A stretch of DNA of 64,000 nt from a virus. Both the position numbers and the translations under genes were made by a program. The notes under the pieces were generated by a model, which was given only the letters and a program-made list of their open reading frames with translations, was not told where the DNA came from and searched no databases. Positions 10,032-41,149 of this stretch are shown piece after piece; within the stretch, counting starts at the first letter, position 1, and the number at the start of each line of letters is the position of its first letter. The DNA is taken from positions 32,001 to 96,000 of the IMG/VR virus record IMGVR_UViG_3300037483_001670, one strand, 5' to 3'.

Positions 10032-10505
10032 CTAGGCCGCCGCGGATCCGTACCAAGAGCGCGACGCGCGAACCTTGGCACCGTTGTACGAGGCGCGGGT
10101 GTCGCGCCAGACCGGGTGATGGGTCACCCCGTTGCACTCTTCGATGGCGCGCCCGCCGTCGATCGTCTCGACCCGACCGTCGGGCCCGAGGACTTCGCCC
10201 CGGCGGATCCCGCCTGTTTTGGCGATGACGCGCACCGCGGCGCCGCGTGATCCGACCTCGCGCACTTCCGAGAGCACGCCCTGGAACGTGTAGAGGCGAA
10301 CGAGAAACTTGGGGCGCGGGGTTCGCGCCGGCGCGGCGACGGGCTCGGGTTGCGAGCGGAGCACGAGCTCCGCGTCGACGCGCACGACGTCGCCGTCCGA
10401 GTCACGAAGCGAGACCACCCGCGGGCCGACCGCTTCGACGATGCCGCGGATAACGCCCGCGTCCGTCTGCACTTCCACCGGCTCGCCTACTTTGATCTCG
10501 CTCAT
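10032..10505 (-). CDS. hypothetical protein, first gene of the minus-strand run
   Basis: 157 aa, GAGGA SD upstream. Confidence 0.55.
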   Translation of the reverse strand: MSEIKVGEPVEVQTDAGVIRGIVEAVGPRVVSLRDSDGDVVRVDAELVLRSQPEPVAAPARTPRPKFLVRLYTFQGVLSEVREVGSRGAAVRVIAKTGGIRRGEVLGPDGRVETIDGGRAIEECNGVTHHPVWRDTRASYNGAKVRASRSWYGSAAA

Positions 10506-15422: not shown

Positions 15423-15648
15423 TTGTTTCTACGTCGCCTTCCCCGATGGGGTCGAGATCGTGGAGTTCGTGACCGAGGGGACGGGCAACCACAACGTCAA
15501 GTCAGGGCACTTCCACGATCCCGTGGTCGTGCGTATGCGTGTTCCGGAGGGCGGCGATTACGTCGTCAGCCGCGCTGAATTGTACACGTCGCCGCTCGCA
15601 GCGGCGATTCGATCGGCCGAACTGGCCAAGGAGATCGACACCGAATGA
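15409..15648 (+). CDS. hypothetical protein
   Basis: ATG at 15409, coupled to the ComM-like gene. Confidence 0.5.
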   Translation: MQAGDCFYVAFPDGVEIVEFVTEGTGNHNVKSGHFHDPVVVRMRVPEGGDYVVSRAELYTSPLAAAIRSAELAKEIDTE

Positions 15649-17033
15649 AACCGGACATGAAAGCAACGCTCTACTCGAGCGCCCTCGTGGGCCTGGTCGC
15701 GCACCGCGTTCGGGTGGACGTCGAGGTCGTCGCTTCGGGCGGCGTTTCGCGTGGCCTCGTTCTTCCCGACCTGCCCGAGATCGCCGCGAAGGAATCGCGC
15801 ATCCGCGTGATGGCGGCGCTCGCCCAGCTCGGCGTCGAGCTCGACGGCGTGAGCCTCAAGGTCAAGTTGACGTCTGATGCCTCGCTTCAGCATGCGAGCG
15901 GAGCGCTCGATCTCGCCATCGCCGTCGGCGCCATGGCGGCCATCGGCAAGGTGCCCGCGTCGCGGTGCGACGAGGCGACGCTCTTTCTCGGCGAGCTTGC
16001 CATGGACGGCGGCGTGCGGGCCATTCGCGGCGCGTATGCGCACTTGGCCGGCGCTGCCGACAACGGCTTTCGTCGCGCGATTCTGTCCGTCGGCAACCAC
16101 GGCGAGGCAGCAGGCTACACCGTCGGAACGGCGGAGCACCTGCGCGACGTCCGCGCGTGGCTTTGCGGCGAGGAGACCTTGCCGAAGGCGCTGCCAATCG
16201 CTCCGGCGCGTAACGCGTCGACGCCGTTCGACATGTCGGACATCGTCGGTCAGGCCCTAGCGTGTCGGGCCCTCGAGATAGCGGCCGTCGGCGGCCACAG
16301 CGTCCTCCTCCTCGGCGCGGCGGGCACCGGCAAAACGATGCTAGCGCGCCGGCTCACCTCGATCCTGCCGGAGCTGAACGCCGCCGAGCGCGACGAGGCG
16401 AGCAAGATTCATAGCGTCGCCGGCCTCTTGGGGCACGGCGCCGGACCGTTGCAAACGCGGCCGTTCCGCGCGCCGCACCACACCGTCAGCTCGACCGGTC
16501 TCGTGGGAGGTGGCACCCCGGCGCGGCCCGGCGAGGTGTCGCTCGCGCACGCGGGCGTCCTCTTCCTCGACGAGGTGCACGAGTTTCGCAAGAGCACGAT
16601 CGAAGCACTCAACGGCTCCCTGACGCAAGGCGCGACCCGCGTCGTCTCGGATGCGGGTCGGCAGACGGCGACGTTTCCGGCGCGCCCGTGGCTCGTTGGG
16701 TCGGCGCCCCTTTGCTCGTGCGGTTGGTCGCGCGTGCCCAATGCGCGACAGTGCAAGTGCTCACCCGAGCAAATCGCGGTCTTCACGCGACGGCTCCCGA
16801 CGTACTTGTTCGACCTGGTCGTGCATGTTGACCCGGTGGTCGTGGCAGCGATGAAGGACCACATCCCCGGCGAGTCGTCGGCGGAAGTGCGGGAGCGCGT
16901 CGTACGTGCTCGCGAGTTTGCGCGTCGCGAAGGTGGTACGGGCGACGTTGCCCGTACGATCGCCGACCTCGACGGTTCGTCGAACGTCATGGCGCGTCAC
17001 ATGGAGGAAGCGCAGAGCTTTCGCGCGCAGTGA
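15645..17033 (+). CDS. comM: ComM/YifB (Mg-chelatase-like AAA+) homologue, degenerate in sensor and Arg-finger motifs
   Basis: LPEIAAKESRIRV; FLGELAMDG; GAAGTGKTMLARRL; RPFRAPHH; RPGEVSLAHAGVLFLDE; VARTIADL. Confidence 0.88.
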   Translation: MKPDMKATLYSSALVGLVAHRVRVDVEVVASGGVSRGLVLPDLPEIAAKESRIRVMAALAQLGVELDGVSLKVKLTSDASLQHASGALDLAIAVGAMAAIGKVPASRCDEATLFLGELAMDGGVRAIRGAYAHLAGAADNGFRRAILSVGNHGEAAGYTVGTAEHLRDVRAWLCGEETLPKALPIAPARNASTPFDMSDIVGQALACRALEIAAVGGHSVLLLGAAGTGKTMLARRLTSILPELNAAERDEASKIHSVAGLLGHGAGPLQTRPFRAPHHTVSSTGLVGGGTPARPGEVSLAHAGVLFLDEVHEFRKSTIEALNGSLTQGATRVVSDAGRQTATFPARPWLVGSAPLCSCGWSRVPNARQCKCSPEQIAVFTRRLPTYLFDLVVHVDPVVVAAMKDHIPGESSAEVRERVVRAREFARREGGTGDVARTIADLDGSSNVMARHMEEAQSFRAQ

Positions 17034-23273: not shown

Positions 23274-25265
23274 ATGCGAGAAGAATATCGGTCCAAGAAA
23301 TTCACGACGGAGTCGCTCGATCGTATCGGGCAGTGCAACGAGATCATCGACGACTACGCGGCGCAAGGTCTGCGGCTGACCTTGCGGCAGCTCTTCTACC
23401 AGCTCGTCTCGCGGGCGCTTCTCTCGAACGAGCAGCGGAGCTACAAGAATTTGTCGACGCTCGTTAGCGACGCCCGGCTGGCGGGCCTGATGGACTGGGA
23501 TGCCATCGAGGACCGCGGAAGGCAACCGCGGGCCGCGTCGGAGTTCAAAGACCTGGCCGAGCTCGCCGAGGCGGCGATTCAGAGCTACCGCCTGCCTCGC
23601 TGGCACAACCAGGACTCCTATGCGGAATTGTGGTGTTTTCCACCAACGACGCTGGTTACCACGCCGGATGGCGTTGCGCCCATTGCGGCACTCGAAGTCG
23701 GAGATCTGGTCATCGACGCTCAGGGCGTTGCTCGACGGGTGCGCAGCCTGTTTCGGCGCCGCTATGTTGGTCGCTTGGTCGAGGTGCGAGCGCGGGGGCT
23801 ATTGCCATTTTGTCTTACGCCGAACCACCCGGTACGGGTGGAGCAGTGGACCGGGACAGGAGTGGGCAGCTCTCGTGGTTATTCGCCGCGCGAATTTGTG
23901 CGAGCCGATCGTTTGCGGAAGCATGATCTTGTCATCGTGCCACGCGTCGGTCTGGTGCGTGACCGGCGGACGCTGCGCATGGCTGGAGGACCAAGGACGG
24001 TCAATACACCAACGGTGAAGGTCGATAGCGCGTTCTGCTCCGTAGCTGGGCTGTATCTGGCCGAAGGCAGTGTGCGCGGCGATGGGCGGACTTTGCAGTT
24101 CACGTTTCATCGGAAAGAAACGGCGTACGCCGAGGTGGTCAAGGCCTGGGCCACCGTTGCCGGATTTAAGTGGAGCGAAGCTTTCGGCGCAGGGACAAGA
24201 ATCGTGTACGTCTTCGGTAAAGCTGCGGCCAAGTTCTTCGGAGACGCTTTCGGCTCTGGGTCGTGGAACAAGCGGTTCCCGTTGTGGGCGATGACGCTGC
24301 CGCACGCCAAACAGATGAAAATGTTGGAATACTATTTTCGTGGCGATGGCTCGCTCTGGGACGTTAGTCGTTCAGCATTGTCCGTGGGTACCCGTAGTGA
24401 AACATTGGCAAGGCAGGTGCAACTCGTATTGATGCGATGCGGCCACGCTGCGTCGCTCTGCGTTGTTCAAGATCATGGGCAACCGTTTTTTCGCGTGACG
24501 ATCGGCGGTGTCAACGCGGCTGCGGTTGGCAAAAAATGGAGCCTACCTTTGCCAGTTCGTAAGTACAGATTCTCGCACATGAAAGTGCGTGTCGACGGCG
24601 TGGCGTGTCCGATTGGTACCCTTCGTGAGGTGCCGTACGAAGGGGACGTCTACAATATCGAGGTCGAGAAGACGAACTCCTATTGTGTTCCGTGTGCCGT
24701 GCATAACTGTGAAAAAGACGCTCTGGCCGGCATCTTGTGGCCGCTCGCACGTCAGTTTCACGTGTCCCTGCAAGTGAATAAGGGTTACTCGTCCCAATCG
24801 GCAATGTACGAGGCGGCCGCCCGCTTTAAGGCGAAGGAGTACTACGAGAACACGTCGACCGAGCCTGCGCATTCCGTTCAGCGCCGACTCGTGCTGCTCT
24901 ACCTCGGCGACCACGACCCGTCCGGCGAGGACATGGTGCGCGACATCCGGGAGCGGCTCAGCATGTTCGGGGTCGAGGTCGACGTGCGCAAGATCGCACT
25001 GACGATTCGGCAGGTGCGTCAGTACAACCCGCCGCCGAACCCCGCCAAGATTACGGACCCGCGCGCGGTCGATTACATCCGCAAGCACGGCGAGAAGTCG
25101 TGGGAGGTCGACGCGCTGCCGCCCGAGGTGCTGTCGCAGTTGATCCGCGCGGCGTTCGCCGAGCTTGTCGACGAGAGCGAGCTCCGGCGGGTGCTCAAGC
25201 TGGAGGAGCGTGACAAGAAGCGACTACGCAAGGCCGTCGAGAAGCTCACGGATCAGGCCAAATGA
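23274..25265 (+). CDS. TopoVI-A/Spo11/JetD-like TOPRIM protein interrupted by an intein
   Basis: LTLRQLFYQL (Tyr motif), W|CEKDAL, NKGYSS, LYLGDHDPSG (DxD), WEVDAL; exteins total about 305 aa. Confidence 0.8.
   Translation: MREEYRSKKFTTESLDRIGQCNEIIDDYAAQGLRLTLRQLFYQLVSRALLSNEQRSYKNLSTLVSDARLAGLMDWDAIEDRGRQPRAASEFKDLAELAEAAIQSYRLPRWHNQDSYAELWCFPPTTLVTTPDGVAPIAALEVGDLVIDAQGVARRVRSLFRRRYVGRLVEVRARGLLPFCLTPNHPVRVEQWTGTGVGSSRGYSPREFVRADRLRKHDLVIVPRVGLVRDRRTLRMAGGPRTVNTPTVKVDSAFCSVAGLYLAEGSVRGDGRTLQFTFHRKETAYAEVVKAWATVAGFKWSEAFGAGTRIVYVFGKAAAKFFGDAFGSGSWNKRFPLWAMTLPHAKQMKMLEYYFRGDGSLWDVSRSALSVGTRSETLARQVQLVLMRCGHAASLCVVQDHGQPFFRVTIGGVNAAAVGKKWSLPLPVRKYRFSHMKVRVDGVACPIGTLREVPYEGDVYNIEVEKTNSYCVPCAVHNCEKDALAGILWPLARQFHVSLQVNKGYSSQSAMYEAAARFKAKEYYENTSTEPAHSVQRRLVLLYLGDHDPSGEDMVRDIRERLSMFGVEVDVRKIALTIRQVRQYNPPPNPAKITDPRAVDYIRKHGEKSWEVDALPPEVLSQLIRAAFAELVDESELRRVLKLEERDKKRLRKAVEKLTDQAK
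23634..24707 (+). mobile_element. intein with LAGLIDADG homing endonuclease (358 aa)
   Basis: Starts CFPPTTLV, ends VHN followed by Cys +1; blocks AGLYLAEGS and EYYFRGDGS; VYNIEVE block F; visibly lower GC. Confidence 0.9.
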
Positions 25266-27612: not shown

Positions 27613-28034
27613 GTGAGAGCGGGGAGGCGCTCGCGGTAGCGTTCGAGCCGCCACCGGCCGATGGGCCACCGCTTGCGTCGACCGCTCTGGTCTGCGATCA
27701 CTGCGGTGCGCCTTGCAACATGGCCGAGTACGTGACCGAGCACGTGACGCGCGTCGTGGACGGGTGGGCGGCGCCCGGCGGCCTCGGACCGGAGAAGCTG
27801 ACGCGCAAGGAGCTCCTGGTCACGCATCTTTTGCTGCGAGGCTACATGGTCGACGAGCTCGCGACCGTGTTGGGTAACACGACGAAAACGGTGAAGTGCC
27901 ACATCACGTCGATCTATCGGAAGCTCGGCATTCAGGCTCGCCATGAGCTCTTCGCGCGAGTCTTCGGGTTCGACGACATGCCGATGCCGGAGAGCGCGTG
28001 GCAGAACCAAAACCCGCGCTGTCCGCAGGTCTGA
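27609..28034 (+). CDS. LuxR/GerE-type HTH regulator with N-terminal CxxC
   Basis: LTRKELLVTHLLLRGYMVDELATVLGNTTKTVKCHITSIYRKLGI; CDHCG; GTG at 27609. Confidence 0.85.
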   Translation: MSESGEALAVAFEPPPADGPPLASTALVCDHCGAPCNMAEYVTEHVTRVVDGWAAPGGLGPEKLTRKELLVTHLLLRGYMVDELATVLGNTTKTVKCHITSIYRKLGIQARHELFARVFGFDDMPMPESAWQNQNPRCPQV

Positions 28035-28042
28035 TCGAAAAC

Positions 28043-28085
28043 TTGCCGTGCAAGTTACGATCGTGCTAGTACGATCGTAACGATG
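28043..28085 (+). promoter_or_regulatory. promoter/operator upstream of the cas12-like gene (site 4)
   Basis: TTGCCG (28043) N18 TAGTAC (28067); 28-bp near-palindrome GTTACGATCGT-GCTAGT-ACGATCGTAAC at 28054-28081. Confidence 0.75.
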
Positions 28086-29873
28086 TCAAATCGTCGAACA
28101 GCGGTAGCAAGGTCCGCGTCTCTGCCGTACGGGTCGACTCCACGACCCTTAGGCGACGAAGCTGGGGAACATGACGGCCCTCGGGCCGAGGAAGCAAGCT
28201 CGCCAGCGCTCGCTATAAAGTCGCACGTTGGTGCATCTGTCCCAACCTTCCCCCTCGTGATTGATTCGAAAGAACTGATCGTCGGTCTTGGGGACAACCG
28301 TGGCCAGGTGCTCGAGGGCCCCACGCTCTCGAATCAACCAACAAGTGACACTCCCACGCACCCTCCCGCAAGGGAGGAGGGCGGAGATGCGGACCTTGCT
28401 GCTGCTGTTCCGGGCGCCGAGCCGGCGCCTGAGTTTCGGGTCACGCGCAACACGACGCGGTTCGAGATCGATCTGCGCGCGATGTCCGATCGTCTCAACG
28501 CGAAGCGAGAGAAGGGCCAGAAGCGCGTCATGGGGCCCGAAGAGAAGGAGCTCCGCGGTGCGCTCGAGAACGTGGCGCGGCTTGCGACGACGGCGCGCAA
28601 CGTGGCGATGCGCGCGAACGAGCGACGGGACGCCGAGGCGCTCGATCGCTACTTGCTCGAGCATGGGGCGATGCCGCGGAAGATGGCCGGCATCTTTGCC
28701 CCGGTCCGGAAGTCGGGCGTCGACACCGGCGGGCACGAGGTTTACTCCTACCCGCTGATGCGCCGGGCGTGCCCCGAGCTCTCGACCAACATGGTGGCCA
28801 CGCTCCAGAAGGACGTGGACGGCAAGTGGGTGCAGGAGCGCTACGACGTGCTCGTGCGGCAGACGCGCAGCCGGCCGCACTTCAAGATGGGGCAGCCGTT
28901 CCCGATCCCGGCGGCCTCGCTCAATCTCAAGGCGGCGGGCGATTCCCTGCTCTTGTCGATGGCGTTCTACTCGCAGTCGCACGAGGGGACTCGTCGGTTC
29001 ACGGTGCCGATGCGTCCGCGGGACGACCACCAGACGAACATCCTGGCGCGCATCGCGTCGGGCGAGTGGAAGCACGGCCAGGCCGTCTTCGAGCAGGACC
29101 GACTCCGTCCGTGGAAATGGTACGTGCGGCTCGCGTACAAGCGGCTCATCCCGAAGGCCCGGCAAGGGATCGCGGCCGGCATCAACCGCGGCTGCCGGGC
29201 GATGATCGCGGCGTGGACCGAGACCGGCGAGGCGTGGATCTACGACGGCCAGGACATCGAGGCCTACCTGAAGCAGATGCAGGCGAGGCGTCGTCGGTTC
29301 CAGAACGCGTCGAAGGCGTCGGGCCGGCACGGCCATGGTCGAGCTCGCATGCTCCGGCCGACGGAGGCGCTCGAGGGCAAGGCGCAGCGCTACCGGCAGA
29401 CGCGCTGCCAGGTCATCGCCCGCCGCCTCGCGCGCTGGCTTTTCGAGCGGCACGTCAACATCGTCTACATCGAGGACTTCGGCGGCATCCGCGACGGCTT
29501 GCCCGAGAACCTCGAAGGCGGCAAGTACGTTTGGGACCGCATCCAGGAGTGGCCGTATTCCCAGCTCCAGATGCGTCTCGTGGCGTGTCTCGAGGAGCTC
29601 GGCATCGAGGCCACGTCGGTCAGCGCGTCGTACATTTCGCAGACGTGTCCCGCGTGCGGACACACCGCGGAAGCGAACCGCGATTGGAAGTTCTGGCGGT
29701 TCAAGTGTACCGCGCCGGGCTGCAAGTATCGGCGGCACCTCGACGTGGCGGCCGCGCAAAACGTTTGCGCGAGAGGCAAGGCAACGACGGCGGAAGGGGT
29801 CAGCGAAAACGCGGCGTTGCCGAACGGCCCGAAGGGCTCGAAGCGAACCGCTCGCAAACCTAGGCGTAAGTAG
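28083..29873 (+). CDS. cas12: TnpB/Cas12f-like type V effector, predicted nuclease-dead (true start uncertain)
   Basis: RuvC-I AGINRG (N368 where Asp is expected), RuvC-II IVYIEDF (E464), Zn finger SQTCPACG..CTAPGC, RuvC-III HLDVAAAQNV (D554); 28 nt from a CRISPR array. Confidence 0.85.
   Translation: MSNRRTAVARSASLPYGSTPRPLGDEAGEHDGPRAEEASSPALAIKSHVGASVPTFPLVIDSKELIVGLGDNRGQVLEGPTLSNQPTSDTPTHPPAREEGGDADLAAAVPGAEPAPEFRVTRNTTRFEIDLRAMSDRLNAKREKGQKRVMGPEEKELRGALENVARLATTARNVAMRANERRDAEALDRYLLEHGAMPRKMAGIFAPVRKSGVDTGGHEVYSYPLMRRACPELSTNMVATLQKDVDGKWVQERYDVLVRQTRSRPHFKMGQPFPIPAASLNLKAAGDSLLLSMAFYSQSHEGTRRFTVPMRPRDDHQTNILARIASGEWKHGQAVFEQDRLRPWKWYVRLAYKRLIPKARQGIAAGINRGCRAMIAAWTETGEAWIYDGQDIEAYLKQMQARRRRFQNASKASGRHGHGRARMLRPTEALEGKAQRYRQTRCQVIARRLARWLFERHVNIVYIEDFGGIRDGLPENLEGGKYVWDRIQEWPYSQLQMRLVACLEELGIEATSVSASYISQTCPACGHTAEANRDWKFWRFKCTAPGCKYRRHLDVAAAQNVCARGKATTAEGVSENAALPNGPKGSKRTARKPRRK
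28350..28380 (+). ncRNA. candidate tracrRNA element (anti-repeat plus GNRA hairpin)
   Basis: ACTCCCACGCA pairs with repeat nt 19-30 (11 bp, one bulge); followed by CCTCCC-GCAA-GGGAGG. Confidence 0.4.
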
Positions 29874-29901
29874 TGGAAAGTGTTGCTGTGCGGAACGAGC
29901 C

Positions 29902-31191
29902 GTCGGAACGAGTGAAGAATGCAGTGGGAGTTGGAGGAGCATCATCCAAAGCGCCAAGATCGATTGGGCCGATCTGTCGGAACGAGTGAAGAATGCAGTG
30001 GGAGTTGGAGGTTAATCCGCACTTACGCCCGTCGACGACCGATGGGCCGCGTCGGAACGAGTGAAGAATGCAGTGGGAGTTGGAGGTTGGAAGTCGGCGC
30101 TCTTCACGTCGATTCCAGCGGTAGGTCGGAACGAGTGAAGAATGCAGTGGGAGTTGGAGGAACCACCCCAACGACGACGTCGACTTTTCGATCAAGGTCG
30201 GAACGAGTGAAGAATGCAGTGGGAGTTGGAGGGTGCACGCGGTCTCGAAACATATGAATCGCACTTCGGCGGTCGGAACGAGTGAAGAATGCAGTGGGAG
30301 TTGGAGGGCGTCCCGATACGTCACCACGATCGAACTCTGCGCCGTCGGAACGAGTGAAGAATGCAGTGGGAGTTGGAGGAACATAGCGACGCGCGCAAAC
30401 TACGGTTGCATGCTCGCGTGTCGGAACGAGTGAAGAATGCAGTGGGAGTTGGAGGCAGATCCAGCAGTCGAAGACTAAGACACCTGTTGAGATGGTCGGA
30501 ACGAGTGAAGAATGCAGTGGGAGTTGGAGGGACGTTGCTCGGGGCTGCTCTCGACGCACAGGGCGTCGGAACGAGTGAAGAATGCAGTGGGAGTTGGAGG
30601 CCGGTGATGCGTGAGCGGCCGCTCGGCTCGTGCGAGGTCGGAACGAGTGAAGAATGCAGTGGGAGTTGGAGGCGTATGAGAGAAATACAACCGCACCGCG
30701 CCAAACCCAGGTTCGTCGGAACGAGTGAAGAATGCAGTGGGAGTTGGAGGTTGGCACGGGGCTTATCGTCGTCCGACGCTTCGCGGCGGTCGGAACGAGT
30801 GAAGAATGCAGTGGGAGTTGGAGGCTAGAAGGCCAAGTGGATCCCCGCCCGTAGCGCGCGTAGGGTCGGAGCGAAGCGCAGTGGAAGTTTGGAGGAACGC
30901 TGGTAACCATCTCGCTGTTGTTACCAACTTTGCCGGAGCGAGCGCAAAAACGCAGTGGAAGTTGGAGGATGGGCTGCCTGCCGTGAGCTGATTAGCTGGC
31001 CCGCGGGCCCGGAACGAGTGAAGAATGCAGTGGGAGTTGGAGGCGGCAGCATTCACCCTATTGACGACGTGAGTGCCCGACGGAAATGAGCGAAGATGTT
31101 GTGGGAGTTTGGAGGTCCGGTTCGATACGTGTCGTTCGATGGAGCTGGAGGTCAAACGGAGGTCGCGAAAAGAGGCAGTGGGAGTTGGAGG
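29902..31191 (+). CRISPR. CRISPR array: 13 identical 36-nt repeats plus 5 degenerate, 17 spacers
   Basis: Repeat GTCGGAACGAGTGAAGAATGCAGTGGGAGTTGGAGG at 29902, 29976, 30051, 30125, 30197, 30272, 30344, 30420, 30495, 30565, 30637, 30715, 30789; degenerate at about 30865, 30932, 31008, 31080, 31155; unique 34-42-nt spacers. Confidence 0.97.
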
Positions 31192-31222: not shown

Positions 31223-31642
31223 ATGAAAAAGTCAACCAAGAGACGTGAAGCGCGGCCGTCGCGCGTGGAGCTGATCGACGTCGTGCGCGAACTGCTCCTG
31301 GGCGTGCGCCTCACGCGTCAGACGGTCATGCGCATGGGCGTGTCGTCAGCAACCGCGGACCGCTGGCTCGAGATTATCCTCAGCAAGATCCCGCGGGTCG
31401 TGAAGATGCGCAGCGGCAACACGTCGGCGTACGAGTGGCGTGGGCACCTGGTCGTTCCGAAGCCGACGGAGTTTCATGTGGATCCCGAGAACGGGAGCGA
31501 CGACAACTCAGGCACGAGCATCGCGCCGTTCAAGACGTTCGCGAAGTTGAACAGCGTGCTTCGGCAGGGCCCAATGGTGTACCCAGGCGGGCTGACGATC
31601 AACCTGCCGAGCGTCAACGTATCGAAGCGGAAGCGTCGGTAG
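31223..31642 (+). CDS. HTH-like protein immediately downstream of the array
   Basis: LTRQTVMRMGVSSATADRWLEII resembles an HTH recognition helix; ATG at 31223. Confidence 0.55.
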   Translation: MKKSTKRREARPSRVELIDVVRELLLGVRLTRQTVMRMGVSSATADRWLEIILSKIPRVVKMRSGNTSAYEWRGHLVVPKPTEFHVDPENGSDDNSGTSIAPFKTFAKLNSVLRQGPMVYPGGLTINLPSVNVSKRKRR

Positions 31643-31657
31643 TGGAATTGGTGGCTG

Positions 31658-32231
31658 GCAGCGTGGGAGTTTTGGAGGCGCATGATGGCGAACCCGTAGC
31701 AGTTGCGTCGGCTGTGAAGAATGGAAGCGTGGAAGCTGGAGGTCGGGACTTTCTCGAGGGTTTGGGAGTTGGAGGCATGTAGTCGTCGATTACCGCGTGG
31801 GAAGTTGGAGGCATATACTCTCGCGTGCCGGCGGGAGCGGAGGAACCGTGGACCATTGGTGGTTCCGCCAGGGTGCGTGAAGCTGGAGGCAATGAGGTCG
31901 AAATCGGAAGGCTGGGAGCCATGGAGGAACGAGGGCGTCCGGCTGCGTGTTGCGTCTGCCAACGTACGCAGCACGACGACGGGTCGAGCGTGACGTGGAA
32001 ATGCCAGGTGTGCGAGCGGACCGTGTGCCGCGGCTGCACGCTCGTCATTCCCGGGTCAACCCCGCCCGAGTATTACTCGATGACGCTCTGTTCGACGGCG
32101 TGCAGGGAGCAGGCCGGTCGTGATCGTTTGGGAGCTGGAGGTTCAATCAGGTCGAAATCGGGAGCTGGAGGTTGACCATGTCGTGGCAGCGTGGGAGCGC
32201 TGGAAGCGAGCAATTCGTGGGGAGCTGGAGG
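31658..32231 (+). repeat. degenerate CRISPR-repeat remnants
   Basis: GTGGGAG(T/C)TGGAGG-like 3' halves ending at 31678, 31742, 31775, 31811, 31889, 32141, 32171, 32231; near-full copy at 31707-31742. Confidence 0.7.
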
Positions 32232-33525: not shown

Positions 33526-34032
33526 ATGGGTACAGCGAAAGCACAACGAATCGCTCGCACGTCACCATCCGTCAGCACACGCAAGGTGCACCTCAGGCGC
33601 CAGTTTCGAGCGGTCAAGTTCCTGACGACGGTCAGCACGGTGGCAGGGTGGTTCGCGATGTGGGCCGTGCGGCAGAGCCCCTACGGCTACCCGGACAAGC
33701 TCGACAAGGTGGTGCACCGCCTGCGGCGCGAGCTCCTTCACCACGCCCGGAGCGTGCCGAAAGCCAATCGCCTCATGAAGGCGGCCGGGATGTTCACGAT
33801 CGATCAGAACGCGCTCGAGGATCTCATCCTGAGCGTGCTCAAGCCGTGCCGCGAGTTTCAAAAGTGGAACCAGCGCAAGAACGGCAACAAAGCACCGTTC
33901 GGTATCAGCACCCGCTACGACGATCCGTCGAAGCGCGATCCCGATGATGATTTCATCGATCTCGACGCGCTCGCGCGCAACGTGGCGCACGGTGTAGCCG
34001 CCGAAGAGATCGAAGCGAGCAAGCACGACTGA
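33526..34032 (+). CDS. hypothetical protein
   Basis: 168 aa with SD. Confidence 0.5.
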   Translation: MGTAKAQRIARTSPSVSTRKVHLRRQFRAVKFLTTVSTVAGWFAMWAVRQSPYGYPDKLDKVVHRLRRELLHHARSVPKANRLMKAAGMFTIDQNALEDLILSVLKPCREFQKWNQRKNGNKAPFGISTRYDDPSKRDPDDDFIDLDALARNVAHGVAAEEIEASKHD

Positions 34033-34218: not shown

Positions 34219-34956
34219 CTAGATCGACGCGAGGATGCTTTGCGCGGCCGCCGCCGGGTCAAAGGCATCGCGGATGGGCGAGCCGACCACGATCATGGAC
34301 GCTCCGTCGGCCATGGCCTGCTTTGGCGTGCCGATGCGTTGTTGGTCGTCCGGCATGACGACCCCCGCCGCGCGCAGCACGGCGGACGCCTGGCGAAGGG
34401 TTCCGGTGTCCAACGGCCGAATCCCGGGAACGAGCAGAAACCGGTCTGGCGCGCCCCGGCGCAGGGTCGCTACCTCCCGCGGCGAGCACACGAAGTCGTT
34501 CACCCCGAGCGCGGCGGCATAGCCCGAGAGAAACCCGACGCGCGCCGACACGCTCGTCGAGGGTCCCATCGACAGATCTTCCAAGTCCTCCCCCTGCATC
34601 GAGGTCAGCACGGTGACGCCCAAGAGCCGGATGCCGAACGGCTCCGCGGCGCGCGCGGCCGCTTCCATGGTGGCGCGCTGCTGGATGTGCATCGTCACGA
34701 ACTTCACGCCGAGGTCCCCGGCCGCTGCGACCGCGCGGGCCACGGTCCGCGGGATGTCGTGCAACTTGAGATCGAGGATGATCGGCCGCGCGGTTTGCTG
34801 CGGCGTCGGCAGCTTGCCGCTCGCGATGAAGAGCTCGAGGCCGACCTTGAACGCTCCGACGTGGTCCTCGAGCAGGTGGATGTAGCGATCGGCGTCGTCC
34901 TTGGACGGCAGGTCGAGAGCGAAGCAGATCGGGTTCGTAATTGTTTCCGAGCTCAT
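34219..34956 (-). CDS. pyrF: orotidine-5'-phosphate decarboxylase
   Basis: FALD; FKVGLEL; DLKLHDIPRTV; VTVLTS; VPGIRP; DDQQRIGTP; IVVG.PI. Confidence 0.95.
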   Translation of the reverse strand: MSSETITNPICFALDLPSKDDADRYIHLLEDHVGAFKVGLELFIASGKLPTPQQTARPIILDLKLHDIPRTVARAVAAAGDLGVKFVTMHIQQRATMEAAARAAEPFGIRLLGVTVLTSMQGEDLEDLSMGPSTSVSARVGFLSGYAAALGVNDFVCSPREVATLRRGAPDRFLLVPGIRPLDTGTLRQASAVLRAAGVVMPDDQQRIGTPKQAMADGASMIVVGSPIRDAFDPAAAAQSILASI

Positions 34957-39811: not shown

Positions 39812-40144
39812 ATGAAGCTCATCCCGCTCTACCAGAAAGTCATCGTGCGACCCCTCGTCGAACCGGACCGCACGAAAGGCGGCATCATCGTGCCCGAGAC
39901 GGCAAGGAAGACCGAGCGGGCGTACACCGCGAAGGTGGTCGCCGTCGGCCCCGGCCGCATCCTCCAAGACGGCCAGCTCTTGCCCTGCACCGTCAAGGTT
40001 GGCGACACCGTCATTTGCCCGCACTACGTCTACCGGGACAACAACGGCACCGAGCAGACGAGCGACATCGAGATCAAGGGACCCGAGGGGGAAATGCTCC
40101 GCGTCGTGCTCGAGCCCGACCTGCACGCGATCGTGGAGGAGTAG
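39812..40144 (+). CDS. groES: co-chaperonin GroES
   Basis: MKLIPLYQKVIVRP..TKGGIIVP..VVAVGPGR..VKVGD.V. Confidence 0.92.
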   Translation: MKLIPLYQKVIVRPLVEPDRTKGGIIVPETARKTERAYTAKVVAVGPGRILQDGQLLPCTVKVGDTVICPHYVYRDNNGTEQTSDIEIKGPEGEMLRVVLEPDLHAIVEE

Positions 40145-41149
40145 ATGAAACAGTACTTAGACGCCGTGCGTGAGGTGCTCCAGCAGGGGACCCGCAAAGA
40201 GAATCGCACAGGGGTCGACACCCTCTCCACGTTCAATATCACCTACGAGATCGATCTGCGCGACGGGTTCCCGCTGCTGACCACGAAGCAGATCTCGTGG
40301 AAGAATATCGTCGTCGAGAACCTCTGGTTTCTGTCGGGCGATCCGCAAATTGGCCTCCTGCGCAAACACGGCTGCAAGTTCTGGGACGCTTGGGCGAACG
40401 AGGACGGTAGCGTGCCGAGCGCGTACGGCAACTTCTGGCGGCGCTTTCCGGTGCCGGGTCCGAGCATTCCGATACGCACTATGTCAACGATCCCCGAAGA
40501 GACAACCGGTGAGGCTAGCGTCGTCGAGTACAACGATCAACTCGCGTGGGTGCTAGCCGAGCTGAAGCGCAACCCGATGAGTCGGCGCCTAGTCGTGTCG
40601 GCGTGGGCTCCCGGCAACGCGCAGACGTCGAAACTGCCACCGTGCCACCTCCTCTTCACGTTCAACGTGCAGAGCATGCGCAAGGGTCCAAACCGCGACC
40701 TCTTGCTCACGCCCGAGCAGGAACGAAACCTGACGCCCGAAGAGCGCGCCTTCAACTTCGAGCAGGTGCTTTGCCTGCACCTCACGCAGCGCAGCTGCGA
40801 CATTGCGATCGGCGTGCCGTACAACATCGCCGGCTACGCATTTCTCCTCGAGCTGTTCGCCCGGTTCAGCGGCATTCGCGCCGGCATCTTCGCTCACACG
40901 CTCATCGACGCTCATGCGTACACGTCGAAACCGGACGGCTCGATGACCGAGTACGACCACGTTCCTGGTCTCGAGCTCCAGCTGACGCGCGCGCCGCGCC
41001 GGCTGCCGCGTCTTGTGATCGACGATGGCATTCGCGATCTCGCCGACATTCGCCCGCTGCTCGAGGCACCGACCGATGATCTCCTGAAGCACTTCGCGCT
41101 CGAAGGCTACGATCCGCACCCGGCCATCTCCTTCAAAGTAGCGGTATGA
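40145..41149 (+). CDS. thyA: thymidylate synthase
   Basis: NRTGVDT; GFPLLTTK; FWDAWA; SRRLVVSAW; LPPCH; QRSCD..GVPYNIA; DAHAY. Confidence 0.96.
   Translation: MKQYLDAVREVLQQGTRKENRTGVDTLSTFNITYEIDLRDGFPLLTTKQISWKNIVVENLWFLSGDPQIGLLRKHGCKFWDAWANEDGSVPSAYGNFWRRFPVPGPSIPIRTMSTIPEETTGEASVVEYNDQLAWVLAELKRNPMSRRLVVSAWAPGNAQTSKLPPCHLLFTFNVQSMRKGPNRDLLLTPEQERNLTPEERAFNFEQVLCLHLTQRSCDIAIGVPYNIAGYAFLLELFARFSGIRAGIFAHTLIDAHAYTSKPDGSMTEYDHVPGLELQLTRAPRRLPRLVIDDGIRDLADIRPLLEAPTDDLLKHFALEGYDPHPAISFKVAV

Follow-up and report, generated by a model that had tools for sequence, protein, structure and literature searches.

A virus-borne Cas12f1-like CRISPR effector without the first RuvC aspartate and with a predicted tracrRNA inside its reading frame

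The stretch of DNA analysed here (the window) comprises 64,000 nucleotides of the IMG/VR virus record IMGVR_UViG_3300037483_001670, positions 32,001 to 96,000 of a 182,423-base record whose ends overlap by approx. 130 nt. A gene for a Cas12f1-like effector of 596 amino acids (aa) was identified on the plus strand at 28083-29873 from the open reading frame (ORF) list, HMMER, the predicted structure and profiles. It was followed on the same strand by a CRISPR array at 29902-31191, delimited by repeat analysis, and its 5' end overlapped a predicted trans-activating CRISPR RNA (tracrRNA; 28096-28410, plus strand). Positions refer to the window unless a genome (G000, the whole record) or locus (L) number is given.

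The effector consisted of a low-complexity N-terminal extension of ~115 aa, a folded core (~117-565) and a basic tail. Its RuvC-I motif GINRG started at residue 366, and the codon AAC at 29184-29186 (plus strand) placed Asn368 where the catalytic Asp is expected; in the HMMER alignment N368 was paired with the catalytic Asp of the AsCas12f1 motif GIDLG (D225). RuvC-II Glu464 (29472-29474, plus strand) was kept in the window effector, and sequence and alignment located the C4 zinc finger (C522/C525/C542/C547), Arg533 (AsCas12f1 R383) and RuvC-III Asp554, the codon of which begins at 29742, within 29646-29744 (plus strand). The RuvC-I Asn, E464, D554 and the zinc finger agreed with the initial annotation, which had read them from the sequence. 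The predicted structure had a predicted local distance difference test score (pLDDT) of 89.6. Both by sequence and by fold the closest solved structures were AsCas12f1, OsCas12f and SpCas12f1; the fold match to AsCas12f1 had an E of 1e-27 and template modelling (TM) scores of 0.70/0.78 (Foldseek) at a structure-aligned identity of ~21%. The top defence profiles were Cas12u3 and Cas12f (V-F), and against NF040570 the effector scored 77.5 bits, below that profile's cut-off of 100. According to the predicted model the effector has the compact AsCas12f1 (V-F1/V-U3) fold with WED, REC, RuvC and zinc finger. We concluded that it derives from Cas12f1 but reads N-E-D instead of D-E-D, so that classing it with the V-F nucleases would be inappropriate.

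The initial annotation had proposed to check whether close homologues share the loss of Asp and lie beside arrays. None of the 57 close homologues had Asp at this position, and arrays were present in most loci. Across the clade Asp was found in 0 of the 141 proteins with a residue there, compared with 36 of the 47 next-nearest matches; instead N (101), H (19), T (10), R (6), C (2), Q (2) and S (1) were observed. The RuvC-II Glu was relaxed as well (102/142, 72%, against 98% in the comparison set), with S, A, G and P also tolerated, and the equivalent of AsCas12f1 R383 was present in 49/144 clade proteins as compared with 37/47 in the comparison proteins. In a midpoint-rooted tree from a quick maximum-likelihood search with IQ-TREE (80 sampled rows), all rows lacking Asp but one lay on one side of a branch with a Shimodaira-Hasegawa-like approximate likelihood ratio test (SH-aLRT) support of 100, and several deep subgroups were found within. 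The clade comprised over 130 clusters at 50% identity with an intact ORF; fold, ORF, tracrRNA and arrays were upheld across 35-57% identity. An assembly error behind the AAC codon, named in the initial annotation as a possible refutation together with an Asp in all homologues, was ruled out because an identical protein was present in two Logan assemblies and none of the 141 relatives had Asp. The clade-wide loss of the RuvC-I Asp, with arrays after the gene in most loci, thus bore out the suggestion of a separately inactivated, CRISPR-associated lineage of the Cas12f type.

Exchange of the corresponding Asp abolishes cleavage in AsCas12f1 (D225A; 10.1101/2023.07.03.547593) and in SpCas12f1 (D228A; PMC12255294), and Cas12m with N-D-D or H-D-D triads binds without cutting and still interferes (PMC11013384). 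From the sequence comparison and by analogy with these proteins, the loss of cleavage in the clade appears well supported by inference. The main caveat is that conserved rearranged RuvC sites can be active. Conserved catalytic rearrangements can mean retained activity, and TnpB proteins with a rearranged site are presumed active (PMC10691335). In the clade N368 might act together with E464, D554 and a clade-specific acid such as E489 to cut, nick or process RNA, and the system would then serve ordinary interviral defence. D554 (94%), D465 (91%) and E489 (83%) were indeed conserved, and the arrays are long with a quick turnover, as in immunity. The seven residues tolerated at RuvC-I and the four alternatives at RuvC-II look, however, like relaxation and not like a new fixed catalyst. 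Moreover, the compensations described in the available part of PMC10691335 concern RuvC-II and RuvC-III, and Cas12m does not cut despite its kept RuvC-III Asp (PMC11013384). We consider a rearranged, still active site unlikely.

While the initial annotation was correct for effector and array, it missed the tracrRNA embedded in the ORF. A conserved RNA emerged when the upstream DNA was aligned across loci, and the predicted tracrRNA was defined by this comparative alignment, folding and covariance. In the window it was closed by a 31-bp stem (28096-28126 with 28380-28410), carried an insertion of ~110 nt relative to most relatives and had a folding z of -8.3; no match to Rfam was found. A hairpin at 28131-28148 (plus strand) exposed a loop (28137-28142) which pairs with nt 31-35 of the repeat in a pseudoknot-type repeat:anti-repeat helix. 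Both sides of the hairpin stem changed in a compensatory manner in 4 of 6 pairs, and its covariation score was never reached by shuffles and was far lower in slid controls. Over 13 loci the loop matched the repeat end of its own locus in 65/65 pairs, 64 of them Watson-Crick, which none of 100,000 permutations of repeats among loci reached (p<1e-5, not a strict probability as the loci are related). A conserved core helix (28152-28156 with 28210-28214) and its enclosed stem followed at 28152-28214, and a second anti-repeat at 28350-28360, pairing with repeat nt 19-30 with one bulge, was followed by a GNRA hairpin (28350-28376; both plus strand). Relatives had equivalent, locus-specific second anti-repeats. 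The covariance model recovered the tracrRNA in six held-out loci with E below 1e-13 and gave weak matches beside Asp-retaining Cas12f genes, one of them in the canonical gap between gene and array. A closing stem of ~30-35 bp with locus-specific sequence was detected in 14 of 15 loci tested (two near-duplicates), with energies of -52 to -67 kcal/mol compared with a median of -32 and a best value of -53 for random controls.

Of 20 distinct loci, 16 carried the conserved motif in the reading frame of the effector, uninterrupted by a stop up to the core. In these the hairpin preceded the core by 81-417 nt, always in steps of three, and most of them had an in-frame start with a Shine-Dalgarno or a leaderless -10 motif just upstream of the tracrRNA. 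In the window a -10-like hexamer lies 7 nt before ATG 28083, which suggests a leaderless transcript. The overlap was broken in L007 by a stop and in L009 by a frame change, and both had a Shine-Dalgarno start downstream of the tracrRNA. The N-terminal extension had a median of 64 aa in clade proteins and was lacking in the Asp-retaining relatives. In the window the stretch from the end of the tracrRNA to the first conserved strand contains no in-frame ATG, GTG or TTG, which places the start of translation inside the tracrRNA or upstream of it. The first ~115 codons of the ORF also serve as predicted tracrRNA. On the frame comparisons, a purely RNA role of the 5' region was rejected, and the region is read as RNA and coding sequence at once. 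For As/SpCas12f1 the tracrRNA is located between gene and array (PMC8548392). Neither the clade nor the layout with the tracrRNA in the ORF was found in the literature searched. Two loci showed other arrangements: in L008 (815-935) the tracrRNA was displaced 1.7 kb upstream of the gene, and in L166 (285-427), of a sister group with Arg at RuvC-I, a shortened in-ORF tracrRNA core was directly continued by two copies of the repeat at a distance of 30 nt, possibly a natural single-guide fusion.

The array comprised 13 identical 36-nt repeats spanning 29902-30824 and five degenerate ones ending at 31191, with 17 spacers of 34-42 nt, all different; its first repeat lay 28 nt after the effector stop. 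Here too the description in the initial annotation was correct. The array is probably co-transcribed with the effector gene because no separate leader was present. The repeat was predicted to be unstructured. Its 3' end reads GGAGG, a perfect Shine-Dalgarno-like sequence, as in several relatives. Where enough downstream sequence was available, most loci had an array of 36-nt repeats beginning at the stop codon or shortly behind it; apart from their ends, the repeats diverged strongly from locus to locus. Two Logan assemblies had a gap of only 244 nt behind the gene or a contig end at this place, probably owing to array collapse. Second arrays were seen 2.7-4.7 kb from the effector in L012 (~10.5-11.0 kb) and L019 (~12.5-13.3 kb).

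Beyond the array, shortened units consisting of ~14 nt of the repeat 3' end and a spacer of ~15-20 nt were detected at 31663-31843 with a period of mostly 32-36 nt, and a second cluster of shortened repeat-spacer units with a period of 25-35 nt at 32128-32231 (both plus strand). Many loci had such units of ~25-36 nt, built from 13-15 nt of the repeat 3' end and a 12-20-nt spacer, and L002 had shortened units only, scattered between genes in the 16 kb examined. The repeat part which they keep is the part paired by the tracrRNA; loop and second anti-repeat together form two helices spanning it. An orphan cluster was noticed outside the window at G000 10057-10104 (minus strand), 52 kb from the array. 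It lay upstream of an ORF for a zinc-ribbon protein of 81 aa, and the spacer in one of its units began with the same six bases as spacer 15. Between the array and the shortened units lay an ORF of 139 aa (31223-31642, plus strand) that looked chimeric, with an unannotated N-terminal part and a short segment from the N-terminus of a Pel9A-like beta-helix, the latter also present in a Polyangiales gene.

Two viruses with 97% identical effector genes had their distal spacers and one proximal spacer in common, and one of the two had two extra gene-proximal units. We concluded that spacers are still being gained in relatives and in a polarised manner, as the initial annotation had suggested for the array. 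The degenerate distal repeats and scattered units would suit a remnant of a formerly active, decaying V-F system. This is contradicted by the intact ORF in over 130 clusters, the covarying RNA and the ongoing spacer gain, and we regard such a remnant as extremely improbable.

Cas1, Cas4 and Y1 transposase were not found by a search of the whole 182-kb record, which extends the absence of cas1, cas4 and tnpA stated in the initial annotation; Cas2 and Tn7 genes were not profile-searched. The record carried a HerA-like family match, genes of replication and genes for methylase, endolysins and integrase; Terminase_6N had no match in it. For the viral YifB protein every named top match was from Polyangiaceae or Myxococcales, and one genome of the Polyangiaceae had an effector of the sister group, together with an array, on a contig of 7 kb. 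This indirect evidence makes a Polyangiaceae host plausible. The clade was nearly absent from the cellular genomes searched.

About 25 homologous loci were compared for context. They were situated among small virus-like genes of no known function, and no flanking gene was common to the loci of the clade. No tnsB, tnsC or tniQ was seen among the large ORFs scanned, although no search was aimed at these. Directly before the effector promoter a stand-alone LuxR-family helix-turn-helix (HTH) gene was present (27720-28034, plus strand), which was private to the window locus and without homologue in the others. It was followed by an operator-like 28-bp palindrome at the promoter (28054-28081), ending just before ATG 28083, of which the HTH protein is a candidate binder. 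The palindrome occurred at nine related viral sites, mostly intergenic (18987, 27170, 28054, 36373, 38438 and 50985 in the window; 99960, 111048 and 129507 in genome G000), one of which precedes ORF 27199. It probably acts as operator for a regulon of the virus to which the CRISPR locus belongs.

The integrase family match of the virus and the LuxR HTH gene just upstream raised the question of a partner. The effector could be a targeting module for a protein encoded elsewhere, such as the viral integrase, the LuxR-type regulator, a sigma factor or the host RNA polymerase, and could serve guided integration or activation, possibly via its N-terminal arm. There are precedents in Cas12k and dCas12f-sigmaE, and the arm is kept in frame. 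Yet the conserved residues of the arm map onto conserved RNA motifs and four loci have lost the overlap, and no conserved neighbour exists across loci. The HTH gene, or any other gene, as a partner of the effector was rejected on this last ground, and we judge a partner-dependent module improbable.

As the initial annotation had proposed, spacer targets were sought in phage, plasmid and host collections, and none was found. There was no target in INPHARED phages, in PLSDB plasmids, in 550 kb of related viral DNA or in 383 Polyangiaceae genomes, for which the array spacers of L003 were also searched. In 401 Polyangiales genomes there was no target either, the matches lying in the downstream ORF and outside the spacers. 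IMG/VR contained no match to spacers 1-4 (exact 20-22-nt patterns) or to the exact repeat sequence. The coding-likeness of the spacers was -0.26 ± 0.11, as compared with 0.48-0.98 for random host and most viral windows and -0.05 for one virus, and was thus close to that of viral intergenic DNA. This low value is compatible with promoter targets. No bias between sense and antisense was detected (59/110), and promoter hexamers were not clearly enriched in the spacers.

One match was found within the virus itself: the first 16 nt of spacer 3 match its own 897-aa gene (genome 159264-159249). Together with the operator palindrome of the locus being among nine viral sites, this could mean that the system mainly regulates the virus's own genes by short seed matches, e.g. 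in a lysis-lysogeny switch. A single match of this kind would arise by chance with a probability of up to ~0.03, and among the spacers and mini-units of this and two related viruses there was no other convincing 5'-anchored self-match. We judged the spacer-3 match to be probably due to chance and regard self-regulation as very unlikely.

Among known systems, TldR and Cas12k of CRISPR-associated transposons (CAST) resemble the effector in being dead TnpB/Cas12 derivatives that act by binding. TldR uses an omegaRNA and has no array, and Cas12k needs TnsB/TnsC/TniQ. Unlike TnpB/TldR, the window has an array directly after the stop and the RNA scaffold at the 5' end, and no Y1 transposase was found; unlike Cas12k/CAST, the clade has long arrays and a tracrRNA, and a transposase was not found. 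With neither a transposase nor a common partner gene detected, the view in the initial annotation that the locus does not fit the TldR or CAST arrangement was upheld for TldR and is probably right for CAST.

The type V-F1/V-U3 Cas12f1 proteins (AsCas12f1, SpCas12f1, OsCas12f) share with the effector the fold, the best profile, the zinc finger and the adjacent array. Cas12f1 is known to have a long tracrRNA in which two segments pair with the repeat, together with a pseudoknot and a head-to-toe stem (PMC12255294); an RNA of this kind is predicted here, and the RNA model matches the RNAs of Asp-retaining relatives. The clade differs from Cas12f1 in lacking the RuvC-I Asp, in having the tracrRNA at the 5' end of the ORF instead of in the gene-array gap as in As/Sp (PMC8548392), in being virus-borne and in arrays that erode to mini-units. 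Type V-M Cas12m likewise has N or H at RuvC-I and a kept RuvC-III Asp, and it binds and silences without cutting (PMC11013384). It belongs to another lineage, though, with Foldseek ranks of 27-35 and TM 0.43-0.52 while the best folds and profiles were those of Cas12f; it needs no tracrRNA and has hairpin repeats, in contrast to the predicted tracrRNA and unstructured repeat of the window system. A myxophage Cas12m has an intact D-E-D triad (10.64898/2026.09.14.751636).

The phage 'dCas14' of Al-Shayeb et al. 2020 is Cas12f-like, lacks one catalytic residue and adaptation genes and was proposed to repress; it is a single case with a spacer against the host glycyl-tRNA synthetase and was compared with the clade by description only (PMC7162821). 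The dCas12f of Hoffmann et al. 2026 are Cas12f1-derived, nuclease-dead and use short guides, and an array-linked cluster (Extended Data Fig. 1) was proposed as repressor, the example shown being from Chitinophagaceae (PMC13472631). The sigmaE-linked dCas12f are from Bacteroidota, C-terminally truncated and in an operon with rpoE, and they use single guide RNAs (PMC13472631), whereas both zinc finger and RuvC-III are retained in the clade, which is without a sigma factor and has its tracrRNA as a separate RNA. V-U24 (also V-U43 and V-U44; Altae-Tran et al. 2023, PMC10691335) are metagenomic Cas12 candidates with noncanonical catalytic sites, and V-U24 combines an altered RuvC-I with an HTH neighbour, a link that is not conserved in the clade and was seen at the window locus only. 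The clade is possibly listed among V-U24, V-U43 and V-U44 in that survey, a comparison by description only. We concluded that the system belongs neither to Cas12m nor to dCas12f-sigmaE or TldR; for a CAST there was no indication. The novelty claimed in the initial annotation was overstated, as a phage 'dCas14' repressor had already been proposed (PMC7162821) and array-linked dead Cas12f (PMC13472631) and N-D-D/H-D-D Cas12m binders (PMC11013384) were already known. The novelty lies in a clade of this size and coherence, in its defined RNA parts, in the location of the tracrRNA within the ORF and in the mini-guides.

Taken together, we consider it likely that the locus encodes a virus-borne, cleavage-dead, dual-RNA-guided DNA binder and repressor of the Cas12f1 type; by analogy it most probably works like Cas12m or the 'dCas14' proposed in PMC7162821. 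A single transcript would start just before 28083 and cover the tracrRNA, the effector ORF and the array. When translated it would yield the effector with a disordered N-terminal arm, as the in-frame overlap in the comparison suggests. When folded, its 5' part would become the tracrRNA, excised at the ~30-bp closing stem by a host double-stranded RNA nuclease such as RNase III; excision would take that copy out of translation and could couple the supply of protein and RNA. The tracrRNA would pair with the 3' 18 nt of each repeat, in line with the covariation, and the effector probably forms a dimer like AsCas12f1. On the precedent of Cas12f1 D225A and Cas12m, the DNA bound by the complex would have a flanking protospacer-adjacent motif (PAM) and a match to the first ~15-20 nt of a spacer. 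Binding without a cut would block promoters, transcription or replication, either of host genes or of elements that co-infect the cell. New spacers, the gain of which was seen in relatives, may enter at the gene-proximal end via a Cas1-Cas2 not encoded by the virus. Binding-only dCas12f uses guides of 14-16 nt (PMC13472631), and by analogy the recurrent ~25-36-nt units, including those of L002 with only such units, would fit guides of this kind.

Several points weigh against this repressor interpretation. Besides the conservation of D554 and E489 and the retained activity that conserved rearrangements can mean, no spacer target, PAM or expression data were found in the collections searched, and no repeat resembling the viral one was found in the 383 Polyangiaceae genomes. 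The composition signal of the spacers would also be expected from foreign elements with other codon usage.

Other genes of the virus were noted in passing. A Tad5 (Thoeris anti-defence) gene lay near the CRISPR locus in two viruses (window 33586-34032, plus strand; L002:6816-7241), and some large conserved genes of the virus were common to L012, L016 and L019. Host-like genes in the window encoded the YifB ATPase (15645-17033), an orotidine decarboxylase (34219-34956), GroES (39812-40144), a thymidylate synthase (40145-41149) and an intein/LAGLIDADG-containing protein (23274-25265).

A CRISPR system in a virus is usually read as a weapon that cuts the DNA of rivals. A deep clade of more than 130 protein clusters that gave up cutting but retained its arrays and the turnover of spacers would mean that viruses use adaptive, multiplexed gene silencing as a stable strategy, and with defined RNA parts the 'dCas14 repressor' suggestion of 2020 becomes testable. 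More tentatively, such widespread programmable repressors might be carried by viruses of predatory myxobacteria that keep acquiring spacers against promoters of hosts or competitors, trim them to ~15-nt mini-guides and rewire transcription during infection, with a transcript that is either mRNA or, after excision at the 30-bp stem, tracrRNA, and hence a dosage switch. The tracrRNA in frame inside the effector gene points to a simple feedback that links the mRNA with the guide scaffold. With its naturally dead core of ~450 aa, which may accept guides of ~15 nt, the effector is a candidate for a compact CRISPR interference or base-editor chassis.

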